The position numbers and the translations under genes were made by a program. A stretch of DNA of 63,541 bases, counting the filler, from Octopus bimaculoides (lineage: Eukaryota), in assembly GCF_001194135.2 (NCBI RefSeq). It is 6 parts of 6 records of this genome, joined end to end, with 100 filler letters (N's around TTAATTAATTAA, not from the genome) between each part and the next. Parts side by side here need not be neighbours in the genome. Positions count along the whole stretch, not along the records: positions 1 to 22,025 come from NC_068990.1; positions 22,126 to 23,774 come from NC_068981.1; positions 23,875 to 32,799 come from NC_068993.1; positions 32,900 to 52,554 come from NC_068985.1; positions 52,655 to 57,948 come from NC_068982.1; positions 58,049 to 63,541 come from NC_069004.1. The stretch is one strand, 5' to 3'. This document shows, one piece after another, positions 2,943 to 60,471 of the stretch; position 1 is the first letter of the stretch, and every line of letters begins with the position of its first letter. The notes below the pieces were generated by a model. The model made no database searches. It was not told the origin of the DNA and worked only from the letters and a program-made list of their open reading frames with translations.

Positions 2943-2970
2943 GACGTTTCAAGCCTACGCTCATCGATAG
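2943..2970 (-). ncRNA. Degenerate minimal hammerhead-like motif
   Basis: Minus strand: CTATCGA T GAGC-GTAG-GCTT GAAA C GT C. Core has two mismatches to CUGANGA; stem I is only about 3 bp. Confidence 0.35.
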
Positions 2971-3134
2971 AAAGGATTGAGAGGGGGAAAATGGAGAGAG
3001 ATATAAAAAAAAAACACGGAGAGAGGGAAAATGTGTAGGGATTAACGGTTCAACCAGGTATATATATTGATGGAGTGGAAGAGGCAGAACCAGGTTACAT
3101 TTGTTTCCTAGCTAGCAGATCTTCAGGATCTTAC

Positions 3135-3170
<36 letters not shown>

Positions 3171-3269
3171 NNNNNNNNNNNNNNNNNNNNNNNNNNNNNN
3201 NNNNNNNNNNNNNNNNNNNNNNNNNNNNNNNNNNNNNNNNNNNNNNNNNNNNNNNNNNNNNNNNNNNNN

Positions 3270-3398
3270 ATGGCGGTGCCCCAGCACAATGGCGGTGCCC
3301 CAGCACAATGGCGGTGCCCCAGCACAATGGCGGTGCCCCAGCACAATGGTGGTGCCCCAACATGGCCGCAACCTCAAGACTGGAACATATAAAAGAAT
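3270..3398 (+). repeat. 19-bp minisatellite (ATGGCGGTGCCCCAGCACA)x4+ running into a SINE-A 3' tail
   Basis: Four perfect units at 3270-3345 plus a variant fifth continuing CATGGCCGCA...GACTGGAACATATAAAAGA. Left end is lost in a gap. Confidence 0.9.
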
Positions 3399-3404
3399 AC
3401 AGCG

Positions 3405-3470
3405 ATTTGATTTCAAATTCCACCGATATCAACCTTGCTTTTCACTTTTTCAAGATCATTAAAATGCAGT
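3405..3470 (+). mobile_element. SINE family D fragment
   Basis: TTCAAATTCCACCGATATCAACCTTGCTTTTCAC matches the family D segment TTCAAATTCCGCCGAGGTCGACTTT. Confidence 0.55.
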
Positions 3471-3589
3471 ATCAACGCTGCAATGTGGACAATTCGGGCT
3501 CTTTGTGTTCTGAATTCTTGGGTGGTTTAAAGCCTTTACCTGATCTTTGGATACCTTTAGTAAATGCAGCCTTGTTGTGAGTATCTGGG

Positions 3590-3655
3590 CCTGATTAAGG
3601 ATATCTTCCTTCCAGACTGACCTAGGGTTAAACAATAACAACAACACTAAGTTAA
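3590..3655 (+). mobile_element. Family F 3' tail ending in (CAA)n
   Basis: GACTGACCTAGGGTTAAACAATAACAACAAC closely matches 4351-4385. Confidence 0.55.
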
Positions 3656-3745
3656 AATATCTTAGAAACAATTATTACTAGAAGCCGTGAATTGGTAGAA
3701 TCGCGACAGAATCAGACAAAACGTCTCACATCATTTAATTATAGC

Positions 3746-3955
3746 AAAGTGGCGAGCTGGCAGAACCGTTAGCACGTCGGGAAAAATGCTTAGCAGCATT
3801 TCATCCGTCTTTATATTCTGAGTTCAAATTCCGCCGAGGTCGACTTTACCTTTAATCTTTCTGGGGTCAATAGAATATGTACCAGTGAAGTACTGAAGGG
3901 TGGATGTAATCCGTTTCCCCGTCACCTCAGAAACTACTGACCCAGTGCCCAAATT
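3746..3955 (+). mobile_element. SINE family D (Nin/Deu-domain-like)
   Basis: GGCGAGCTGGCAGAACCGTTAG head, GAGTTCAAATTCC B box and CTTTACCTTTAATCTTTCTGGGGTCAATAGAATATGTACCAG domain. Shared with at least 6 other copies in the window. Confidence 0.85.
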
Positions 3956-4044
3956 TATTTTTAGTCTTTTTAAGATCTGTGTTCTTGTGTAGGAGGTACT
4001 GAGAAAATATGTCATAAGCGCTGCACTTTCCTACTTACAGTAGG

Positions 4045-4268
4045 AACCTTATGACTCACAGAACCGGTTAGCTGGTTTCCATGGTGTATAAGTGACCGAG
4101 ATCACAACATGTATCCCTGAAAGGATCGCCCAGTCCATTGTAGCAGTATCCAACATGAAATGAAGTGTTTTGCTCAAAGAATATAACGCACCGACTAATT
4201 CGAGAATAGAAACCACAATAACGCGATTGTGACGGCAACAACCTAACCACTAGTTCATACGCCATTAC
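4045..4268 (-). mobile_element. SINE family C (MetaSINE-like), degraded
   Basis: CAACATGAAATGAAGTGTTTTGCTCAAAGA is the reverse complement of the family C core at 2155 and 31600. Confidence 0.65.
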
Positions 4269-57395: not shown

Positions 57396-57406
57396 TTTTA
57401 TAGGGT

Positions 57407-57948
57407 ACTAGCAGTATAGACCGGCACTGCTCGGGATTAAGCTAGGATTATTAAGTGATCAAATGCTTTATTTCAAACCAAAATAAGTAACATGGACATC
57501 AGATTTGAGCGAAATCCGTTGAAATTGGTTTGGCTGAAAATTGTTTGCTGGCAATTTGATTGGGAAATCCCATAAGGAATCAGTTTATTGGTTATTTCCA
57601 CTCATTGACTGTTATTTTTTTAAAGTTGCATTAGAGATCTGCATAGGAAAAGGTTTGCATTGGGGATGTGAATTGAAGTAACTTAGGAAAACTTACCAAC
57701 AGCCTTAACCAAAAAATAAGGGGCCTGTCCCTTCTAGGTTAACTCTAACCTTAACCCTAGACCCTAACCCTAACCCTGACCCTAAAACCGTAACCCTAAC
57801 ACCAACCCTAATCATAATCCTAACACTAGCCTTAACCCTAACCTTAATCCCAACCGTAAAGCTCTAACCCTAACCCTAAAACCCTAACCGTAACGCCCTA
57901 GTGGAAATCGTGCGGTTGTTAATCTGAAACATTACAAAACCCTTTTTG
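57407..57948 (+). mobile_element. Probable non-autonomous Helitron/Helentron-like element
   Basis: 5' ACTAGCAGTATAGACCGGCACTGCTCGGG start, internal AGATTTGAGCGAAATCCG, and a degenerate (CCCTAA)n tract. 3' end lost at a scaffold join. Assignment is from recalled family features. Confidence 0.45.
57740..57900. repeat. Degenerate (CCCTAA)n telomere-like repeat
   Basis: Direct reading of the sequence. Confidence 0.9.
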
Positions 57949-57992
57949 NNNNNNNNNNNNNNNNNNNNNNNNNNNNNNNNNNNNNNNNNNNN

Positions 57993-58004
57993 TTAATTAA
58001 TTAA
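57993..58004. other. Synthetic scaffold linker TTAATTAATTAA
   Basis: 44 N either side. Confidence 0.92.
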
Positions 58005-59062
58005 NNNNNNNNNNNNNNNNNNNNNNNNNNNNNNNNNNNNNNNNNNNNTATATATGTATATATATATTTATATATATATATATATATATATGCAAACACC
58101 ACATATAAATGATGTATAAGATTGCATATGCGCATACATCTACATATATTAGCGTGTATAATAGTTTCATGCGCATGTATTTTTCAGTGAATTGTGTAGG
58201 AACAAATAGACCTATTTCATAGCTGAGAATTTCGCTCATTACGGAGCTAACTACATCACATTCCTTGTATATGTAAATGAGTGGGGCTGTCTTCCTGCAT
58301 GTGTACCTGTGTGTATGCTTATGTGTGCAGGATTGCATGCGTAACGTGCGACTGTGTGCGTGGATATGTCTACTTAGGAACCTCAACGTGTATGTTTGCT
58401 TGTGATCATCTGTATGCTATTATCTATAAGTAGAAATATACATGCATATATATATATATATATATATANNNNNNNNNNNNNNNNNNNNNNNNNNNNNNNN
58501 NNNNNNNNNNNNNNNNNNNNNNNNNNNNNNNNNNNNNNNNNNNNNNNNNNNNNNNNNNNNNNNNNNNNNNNNNNNNNNNNNNNNNNNNNNNNNNNNNNNN
58601 NNNNNNNNNNNNNNNNNNNNNNNNNNNNNNNNNNNNNNNNNNNNNNNNNNNNNNNNNNNNNNNNNNNNNNNNNNNNNNNNNNNNNNNNNNNNNNNNNNNN
58701 NNNNNNNNNNNNNNNNNNNNNNNNNNNNNNNNNNNNNNNNNNNNNNNNNNNNNNNNNNNNNNNNNNNNNNNNNNNNNNNNNNNNNNNNNNNNNNNNNNNN
58801 NNNNNNNNNNNNNNNNNNNNNNNNNNNNNNNNNNNNNNNNNNNNNNNNNNNNNNNNNNNNNNNNNNNNNNNNNNNNNNNNNNNNNNNNNNNNNNNNNNNN
58901 NNNNNNNNNNNNNNNNNNNNNNNNNNNNNNNNNNNNNNNNNNNNNNNNNNNNNNNNNNNNNNNNNNNNNNNNNNNNNNNNNNNNNNNNNNNNNNNNNNNN
59001 NNNNNNNNNNNNNNNNNNNNNNNNNNNTATGCGTGTGCATATTTATATACATACATATATAT

Positions 59063-59111
<49 letters not shown>

Positions 59112-59852
59112 GTATTTTATATTTATCTATTTAAATATATATATATTGCAAACCGTTAATAAAATCCCGGATTATGACAGCGAAAGAAACGGTACAATTC
59201 CGTTAGAGCCATGTATAAAAGAGAGGGGAATGATTAATGTTATCAGAAGGTATTTAGAAGCCCCTCAAAATATCTAATGTTTATACTGCAAACATAGCAT
59301 TGCTTAGAAGAAACAAGCCAGATTTCCTTGTGAAAATAATAGGAAGGTTCCTGTAATTATAAGCTAGAATCACATCGAAAATGAGTGCATATTACCTATC
59401 CCCAAATGCAATGTTAATCTTCCGTATTGGCAGCAATCATGTCATTCTGACATCATGTCATCTGACTAAAGATTGTTACTGAATTTGTTGCTTAAAGAAT
59501 TTGAGAAAATATTGAAGAAAAATATTAACATATTTGGAGAATAAAATTAATGCATTTTCTGTTGGTTTTTTTGTAAAGATATTTCCCCGCTCCACCGAAA
59601 AATTAGATGTAAGGTGATAGTGTTGCTATGTGATAATTAGTTTGGTTGCCCAAGAATTTGATTCAACGTTCTGTTCTGCTGCATGGCAAATCTATTCTTT
59701 TTCTAGCTTCAGGCTGACCAAACCGTTATGAATGGATTCAGTTCACAGAATCTGAAAGGAACCCCGCCCGCGTACATATATATGTGCATATATATGTGTA
59801 TGTATGTTTGTATATCTATCTATCTATTGGAGGAGGGTATATAAAAATCCTG

Positions 59853-60207
59853 TCAAAAATAACGTGAACTCTTTGTTAGTGAAAATAGTGAGATTGATAA
59901 ATCCCTAGTAAGGAATAAATCAGAATTCACCCCGCCAAAAGGGAGAAATAACTCTCTCGACCAATACATTGATATCCTGTTTCTATTTCGCCTTATACTA
60001 AATATTGATCTTAGACCGAATATTAACAAATCACAGATATCTGCACTTAAACGCCTACAACACAATGGCACGATAATCATTAAAGAAGCAGACAAAGGGA
60101 GTAATTGTTATAAAAGATGACGAATACTGCAGGGATTTAGTTGATGCTCAGTTGAAAGATACAACGTTCTCCTGTGAAATACCTCCAAACACAGACCATC
60201 GCAAATG
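59853..60207 (+). mobile_element. Penelope-like element, N-terminal (pre-RT) ORF fragment
   Basis: RNKSEFTPPKGRNNSLDQYID...NINKSQISALKRLQHNGTIIIKEADKGS then, after a frameshift, VIVIKDDEYCRDLVDAQLKDTTF. Matches the PLE pattern NL...E..AL..L......II..ADKG..VV....Y....L.D. Confidence 0.85.
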
Positions 60208-60294
60208 AGATATGAGCCGAGCAAAAGAAAGGCATGGTCTGTCACCTACCTACCTACCTACCTACCTACCTACCTACCTACCTACCTACATACA

Positions 60295-60326
<32 letters not shown>

Positions 60327-60423
60327 AATATATATATATATAGACATCCGTTGTGAATTTGTTTGGGGGTCCTCAATTATTTCAATTCCTTTCTGTTCTT
60401 TCTCCTGCGAAATTCTCTGGGGC

Positions 60424-60471
60424 AAATTTCTAGTGTCTGAAGCAGAGCAATGCCCGAAACGTAATAAATTT
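60424..60471 (+). ncRNA. Degenerate minimal PLE-type hammerhead
   Basis: TGT CTGAAGC A GAGC-AAT-GCCC GAAA C GT A ATA. Two substitutions from CUGAAGA A GGGC-AAU-GCCC GAAAC GUA; palindromic ACGU stem III. Confidence 0.55.

Follow-up and report, generated by a model that had tools for sequence, protein, structure and literature searches.

Five hammerhead relics in the window

The question raised by this locus is whether the hammerhead ribozyme motifs scattered over one stretch of the Octopus bimaculoides genome (GCF_001194135.2) form a retrozyme system, or are what Penelope-like elements (PLEs) leave behind. The stretch (hereinafter the window) is 63,541 nt long including filler and joins six parts of six records end to end. 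A preliminary description had claimed five type I hammerhead-like motifs, and all of them were found at the positions given: site 1 (2943, minus strand), site 2 (21227, minus), site 3 (52824, minus), site 4 (57294, plus) and site 5 (60424, plus). Very probably all five are type I hammerheads with damage; one lies at the 3' end of a copy of the PLE Hydra-1_Obim and four likely derive from 5'-truncated ends or short non-autonomous derivatives of PLEs, all predicted to be inactive as they stand. Overall, judged from its sequence, the window appears to hold ordinary PLE biology and one probably undescribed non-autonomous family. The hammerheads are listed below, with positions (C3, G5, A9, G12, H17 and others) numbered by the usual hammerhead scheme.

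2940..2973, minus strand: site 1 minimal hammerhead; 3-bp helix I; CUAUCGA (2970-2964) with G5 and A6 changed; extra nucleotide after A9; H17 at 2943
21228..21288, minus strand: site 2 hammerhead; CUGAUGA intact (21276-21270); helix I bulged, helix II of 4 bp, helix III a 14-nt palindrome; A in place of G12
52825..52880, minus strand: site 3 hammerhead; 5-bp helix I; G5 changed; helix II of 3+4 bp around an internal loop; 4-bp helix III with 1-nt loop
57294..57356, plus strand: site 4 hammerhead, in the 3' untranslated region (UTR) of a Hydra-1_Obim copy; helices I, II and III of 10, 8 and 4 bp, the last with a 1-nt loop; C3 changed; H17 at 57346
60434..60466, plus strand: site 5 minimal hammerhead; 3-bp helix I; CUGAAGC (A9 changed); extra A; H17 at 60463

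Each core carried one or two substitutions (site 1, G5 and A6; site 2, G12; site 3, G5; site 4, C3; site 5, A9). The claim of different stems and unrelated families was borne out, as the five motifs shared no mutual similarity at E ≤ 0.05, and the helix III shapes agreed with that description: sites 1 and 5 have ACGU, site 2 a perfect 14-nt palindrome and site 3 AUCC-G-GGAU. The proposed link of these relics to PLEs was supported by the identification of site 4 with Hydra-1_Obim and by the minimal-hammerhead anatomy of sites 1 and 5. The density, five relics per 54,695 called bases or about one per 11 kb, applies to the window and not to extrapolation beyond it. What was directly observed is the anatomy of the motifs, the assignment of site 4 and, for the family of site 3, its high copy number and its majority core. 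The strongest proof that the motifs are real is external to the window, namely the published consensus for site 4 and the family majority letters for site 3; in both of these sites, the two that were testable, the family consensus (the published one for site 4; mapped contigs and reads for site 3) restored the canonical core.

Site 4 and the published element Hydra-1_Obim

Hydra-1_Obim is a Hydra-clade PLE of O. bimaculoides, described in File S1 of Craig et al. (2021, PMC8557442), with its hammerhead in File S2 and its consensus in File S7. Two features of the window, in addition to the hammerhead, correspond to it:

56688..57170, plus strand: Hydra-clade PLE protein, C-terminal part from the thumb to the GIY-YIG end, broken by a linker deletion and at further points; 5' end in an assembly gap
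57394..57407, plus strand: 14 nt identical to the first 14 nt of the Hydra-1_Obim consensus, just beyond the 3' end (by-eye comparison)

Site 4 is identified as a decayed Hydra-1_Obim copy. Compared by eye, the window tracks the consensus almost letter for letter from the reverse transcriptase (RT) thumb to the 3' end, with deletions, and its hammerhead is separated from the published row by two substitutions and by one T within a run. In place and helices the hammerhead matches this row, as a 3' UTR hammerhead of the canonical type, and the core tabulated in File S2 is canonical (PMC8557442), but in the window copy C3 and the base after A9 are changed. The copy is also broken by deletions, one of which removed the CxCX5C linker stretch (by eye). 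As the hammerhead of Hydra-1_Obim is tabulated in File S2, the suggestion that such motifs had not been described for octopus fails for PLE hammerheads; PLE-end hammerheads are published for animals including octopus, and the broad claim therefore adds little.

The protein remnant was compared with a hidden Markov model (HMM) made from 71 Hydra-clade open reading frames (ORFs; 712 positions), which it matched at positions 488-548 and 607-695, in order, with independent E values of 4e-21 and 2e-14. RT followed by a C-terminal GIY-YIG of Hydra type was found at site 4 by HMM and by tblastn. A HMMER search with the remnant matched 2298 proteins at E ≤ 0.001; a word-based protein search with the site 4 fragment gave no match, and none of the four PLE fragments near sites 4 and 5 matched Pfam. 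The 5' end of the copy lies inside an N gap, and no (TA)n run was present at the 3' end. The copy has the first 14 nt of the element past its 3' end, whereas 'no pLTR' is remarked for Hydra-1_Obim in PMC8557442; this start-of-element stretch is read as the trace of a head-to-tail template. A degenerate (CCCTAA)n-like array was located at about 57740-57890 (plus strand), roughly 400 nt downstream of the copy.

Hydra-clade loci in metagenomes

A hammerhead shortly after the ORF is the general arrangement in the Hydra clade. Among 77 Hydra-clade loci found in metagenomes, 54 extended at least 250 nt beyond the ORF end, and a hammerhead within 400 nt of that end was found on the sense strand in 33 of the 54 and on the antisense strand in 3. 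In an alignment of 40 of these hammerheads, 94% of cells were paired and both-side changes occurred in 10 of 12 pairs, although, as the 40 were chosen for pairing, the alignment is no independent test of it. The most frequent helix III was that of 4 bp and 1 nt (24 of 41 loci), which is the form present at site 3.

Some Hydra-clade contigs carried a second, unrelated hammerhead with a very short helix III (L002:129-176, L060:1179-1220, L074 and L069), and the one on L060 has the ACGU form, as do sites 1 and 5. A scan of genome contigs gave four distant PLE loci, none resembling the five sites. On contig L078 (about 150-2590), which is filed under a bacterial genome assembly and is probably eukaryotic DNA, a PLE-like ORF was followed by a minimal hammerhead some 210 nt after the stop codon. 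Viral contigs scanned for the Hydra protein, the site 1 motif and the site 3 motif contained no locus.

The high-copy unit at site 3

The hammerhead of site 3 belongs to a short non-coding element inserted between (TA)n tracts:

52683..53303, minus strand: site 3 element, 1.25 copies of a 496-bp unit flanked by (TA)n tracts; GC content 31%; no stop-free frame longer than 81 aa
52683..52807 and 53179..53303, minus strand: terminal direct repeats of the element, identical at 122 of 125 positions

The site 3 family is a high-copy family present in two organisms. Four of the 24 sequencing runs listed were mapped on the element at 80% likeness, and 2402 contigs of organism A and 1956 of organism B were placed on it. 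Summed word depth was 50,610-77,751 over the hammerhead bins and reached a maximum of 451,929, compared with 53.7 (one contig) on the flank; as summed word depth is no copy number, the family is read only as of the order of a thousand copies or more. That the genome may hold very many hammerhead elements, some of them intact, had been suggested in the preliminary description; this family is abundant, but all five motifs of the window have a damaged core.

The majority letter of the family restores G5 (1256 of 1299 depth in 11 contigs, 1108 of 1201 in 10 contigs, and 13 of 13 RNA reads), and with majority letters three helix II positions become Watson-Crick pairs (29-57 contigs each). When the four majority letters were introduced, the predicted pair probability of helix II rose from ≤0.01 to ≥0.95 and that of helix I from about 0.2 to 0.6. 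The predicted cleavage point is after 52830.

At certain positions (e.g., 52738/53234 and 52782/53278) both terminal repeats depart from the family majority in the same private way, so both come from one template. Nine of the 15 joints among those listed were opposite-strand, each with its own breakpoint and at single-locus depth, which fits the inverted truncated copies described for PLE insertions in the legend of Fig. 2 of PMC8557442. The preferred reading of site 3 is a non-coding unit, about 500 nt long, of which a Hydra-type PLE would have copied 1.25 rounds from a template that was tandem or circular, and the family looks like a non-autonomous, retrozyme-like PLE derivative.

The family is probably undescribed so far. 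One sequence word each for sites 1, 2, 3 and 5 was absent from the Craig supplement (PMC8557442) by exact match, where line breaks can hide words. Site 3 as the end of a cephalopod Naiad was also considered and set aside, as none of five sequence words occurred in the text of the same supplement, in which words broken across lines escape exact search.

The unit at site 2

At site 2, a second short unit was recognised next to a microsatellite:

21028..21419, minus strand: site 2 unit, 357-bp period with 35-bp terminal direct repeat; ends at a tract of (ATAC)n; GC content 40%; no stop-free frame longer than 76 aa
21433..21562, plus strand: inverted partial copy beside that unit's 5' end; crosses the junction between unit end and unit start; matches the unit end at 60 of 67 nt

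This unit resembles that of site 3 but is older. An imperfect palindrome of 240 bp (21322-21562, 72.7%) covers part of the unit and the inverted copy. A separate imperfect palindrome of 326 bp (19860-20185, 78%), with a further partial copy at 20490-20653, resembles a miniature inverted-repeat transposable element (MITE).

Minimal hammerheads at sites 1 and 5

Sites 1 and 5 carry hammerheads of the minimal type, for which the following context was found:

2854..3138, minus strand: site 1 element of about 285 bp, flanked by a (TA)n and a (CA)n tract; no coding remnant by HMM
59827..60202, plus strand: N-terminal RT remnant of a PLE near site 5; relatives carry RT with GIY-YIG at the C-terminus

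Minimal hammerheads of PLEs have an extra nucleotide between 9 and 10.1, a G10.1-C11.1 pair and a palindromic 15.2-16.2; they are mostly single dispersed motifs from truncated PLEs that cleave poorly, and as monomers not at all (Cervera and de la Pena, 2014, PMC4209133). Sites 1 and 5 share with those of metazoan PLEs the extra nucleotide, G at 10.1, the palindromic minimal helix III, the short helix I and the single dispersed occurrence. They differ from them in their damaged cores, in a helix II of only 3-4 bp and in that no contiguous PLE ORF was shown; the window copies lack an intact CUGANGA/GAAA/UH core, with two substitutions at site 1 and one at site 5. Helix II of site 1 is closed by G.U where G10.1-C11.1 is expected, and that of site 5 has one mismatch; in both sites GAA-ACGU follows.

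The site 1 element is likely a 5'-truncated PLE end. About 230 nt upstream of site 5, the RT remnant matched proteins with RT and GIY-YIG at up to 52% identity. This remnant may be 'Neptune-like'. A GIY-YIG C-terminus upstream of site 1, suspected from by-eye likeness, was rejected, as HMMs gave it no support; a short frame at 2328-2504 (minus strand), GIY-YIG-like by eye, was likewise without support from Pfam and two PLE HMMs.

Detection of the motifs by descriptors, models and folding

A permissive three-helix descriptor, composed after the sites had been seen and with one option put in for site 3, was run against 150 block-wise dinucleotide shuffles of the window. At a score of at least 11 it gave four matches (sites 4, 2 and 3 and a new candidate at 38673), whereas the shuffles gave a mean of 0.06 and a maximum of 1. 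Site 2 scored 13.2, compared with an average best-shuffle score of 9.3 (sd 1.2); sites 1 and 5 were outside the top 30 of this descriptor. A minimal-hammerhead descriptor, likewise devised after the sites were known, matched exactly sites 1 and 5 in the window, while one match was obtained in 2 of 300 shuffles and two matches in none of 300. The motifs thus exceed the shuffled rate, sites 2, 3 and 4 by the three-helix and sites 1 and 5 by the minimal descriptor, but as both descriptors are post hoc, the shuffle controls overstate significance.

In folding comparisons with shuffles, site 4 alone was better (z -3.4), the other five folds ranging from z -1.6 to +1.5. A covariance model built from 40 natural hammerheads of Hydra-clade loci gave, in a 4.8-kb scan, weak matches only, at site 4 (E 1.3, partial) and site 3 (E 3.4); this model is too strict on core letters for the scoring of relics. 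The matches listed for a whole-window Rfam scan were swamped by microsatellites.

The candidate at 38668-38731 (plus strand) would be a sixth type I hammerhead. Its core letters are all intact, helix I has 5 bp, and helices II and III are rich in wobble pairs. Its descriptor score was 13.7 but its covariance model E value 0.79, and no repeat or PLE context was found around it.

Alternative explanations

Several observations weigh against the derivation of these relics from PLEs, or against the reality of the hammerheads. The Rfam check came out negative, with zero matches at E ≤ 10 in regional scans spanning all five sites, and the covariance model recovered none of the five at E ≤ 10 over the whole window. 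No coding remnant was detected with PLE HMMs at site 2 or in the elements of sites 1 and 3. The RT remnant near site 5 covers an N-terminal part, and as a microsatellite lies between it and the hammerhead, it possibly belongs to another insertion. The fold predicted for site 3 lacked helix III, also when majority letters were used (probability ≤0.02). The majority letters themselves come from the differences listed, with 71 rows beyond these, and may blend subfamilies; the restoration of G5 relies on few contigs beside a repeat skipped in mapping, and joints at likeness under 95 often arise from repeats. It is nevertheless improbable that the likeness to hammerheads is due to chance at some of sites 1, 2 and 5, or that site 2 is a hammerhead-like stretch within a foldback (MITE-like) element. 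Such readings would agree with the lack of Rfam and covariance model support for these sites, the folding no better than shuffles, the helix I of just 3 bp at sites 1 and 5, the post hoc descriptors and the 240-bp palindrome at site 2; yet the two minimal-type matches and the score of site 2 stand well apart from their shuffles, and the palindrome is equally explained by an inverted partial copy across the unit junction.

A retrozyme system, as proposed in the preliminary description, is a possibility for sites 3 and 2 only. Both resemble animal retrozymes without long terminal repeats (non-LTR retrozymes) in being short non-coding units of low GC (496 bp and 31% at site 3; 357 bp and 40% at site 2) with a type I hammerhead and terminal redundancy, and site 3 is in addition high-copy. 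It is rather unlikely that site 3, and perhaps site 2, is a true non-LTR retrozyme, that is, a unit of about 500 (360) nt with tandem intact hammerheads elsewhere, cleaved into monomers, circularised and moved by PLE proteins. The 1.25-unit layout with nearly identical ends, the lack of an ORF, the canonical majority core and the occurrence in two organisms speak for it, as do the contigs across the junctions of the site 3 unit (repeat to body at the highest depth; hammerhead to repeat in three contigs of one run) and the folding of the units as circles, which was better than that of 40 shuffles (z -3.3 and -4.1). The window copies, however, do not contain two consecutive units with complete hammerheads, but 1.25 units at site 3 and about 1.1 at site 2 with one broken hammerhead each, and no array or second tandem hammerhead in the window. 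The long helix II with internal loop and the Hydra-type helix III of site 3 also differ from the canonical 6-bp/4-bp form of retrozymes. Moreover, published retrozymes are highly expressed (PMC7229834), whereas RNA on site 3 was sparse, amounting to 276 records out of 12.9 million, or 6% of a single run of unstated selection, on both strands alike, with neither abundant nor circular RNA seen in this run. Of these records 70% continue into other sequence, and one pile of 5 ends lies at 53012; no pile of ends was present at the cleavage site among the 276 records of the one run. The reads look like passengers in host transcripts rather than an abundant monomer; as the selection of the library is unstated, non-polyadenylated circles could have been missed. 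It is quite conceivable, if short of probable, that most of the family represents an autonomous PLE's long non-coding end (hammerhead, repeat, body). The window copy would then be a rare gutted or locally rearranged product, and the family's unit would be something other than the 500-nt circle. Depth drops from 340,000-450,000 at the repeat/body junction to 50,000-78,000 at the hammerhead and about 1,300 at G5, like a 5'-truncation gradient; such a drop, however, is also expected from clipping where the window copy diverges most, beside the skipped repeat, and is compatible with both a 500-nt unit and a rare derivative of a longer PLE. The link from body to hammerhead crosses a (TA)n tract skipped in mapping (52892-52943), so that this link may not be general, which leaves room for the PLE-end explanation. 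Against that explanation, none of the loose ends and contigs listed was recognised as entering a PLE ORF (451 loose-end rows lie beyond them), and the private differences shared by the terminal repeats point to one template. What probability remains falls to a dispersed short non-autonomous family without circular RNA.

Proposed mechanism and relation to known systems

In the PLE-derived reading preferred here, which we hold with high confidence, tandem transcripts of PLEs or their derivatives, with a hammerhead in each unit, would be copied by PLE enzymes into microsatellites and then decay. Head-to-tail element transcripts would have a hammerhead near each unit end, and precursors would be cleaved into single units by hammerheads acting either alone or, by way of a palindromic helix III, as a dimer. 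Next, starting at the 3' end, the RT and GIY-YIG endonuclease of PLEs would insert copies into microsatellites, which adjoin sites 1, 2 and 3; copying may often halt early, overrun one unit or add an inverted piece, and inserted copies would afterwards decay. We infer the PLE origin of sites 1, 2, 3 and 5, the insertion mechanism and any cleavage. A role of hammerhead cleavage in PLE precursors is a published proposal (PMC8557442, PMC4209133). Decayed hammerheads below Rfam detection may serve as marks of PLE-derived repeats in the window.

More tentatively, the octopus would harbor a high-copy non-coding element of about 500 nt (order of a thousand copies or more), shared between species, the intact copies of which self-cleave through a Hydra-type hammerhead, circularise and are inserted into (TA)n by Hydra-clade PLEs; this extended model is doubtful. 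If true, the element would be a cephalopod retrozyme tied to the Hydra clade by the form of its ribozyme, and the site 3 repeat would be a new octopus retrozyme only if self-cut circular RNA is made. No report of an octopus retrozyme was found in the literature searched, whose coverage excluded most subscription journals, Repbase, Dfam and some supplements. Dependence of animal non-LTR retrozymes on PLEs is the published model (Cervera and de la Pena, 2020, PMC7229834; Li, Clavereau and Pollet, 2026, 10.64898/2026.07.22.740005), and its extension outside vertebrates is named as untested in the latter. The site 3 family is an abundant, concrete candidate for testing this proposed dependence in an invertebrate. 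Hammerheads have already been counted in another cephalopod, the giant squid, with 235 hammerhead 1 loci given for its genome (PMC6962438); in the passage giving it, the count is not linked to elements. The five octopus sites lie below Rfam detection.

Other elements in the window

No tRNA gene was found in the window. A remnant of an IS1595/ISXO2-like (Merlin-type) transposase was identified at 22851-23582 (plus strand; PF12762, E 2e-7), with its upstream part apparently in another frame. In addition, a dispersed repeat of about 400 bp with an internal microsatellite, resembling a short interspersed element by appearance, was present at 60574-60970 and in about a dozen fragments that are 70-96% alike (e.g., 661-863, 5902-6322, 9690-10242, 19291-19869, 41350-41577 and 48940-49198).

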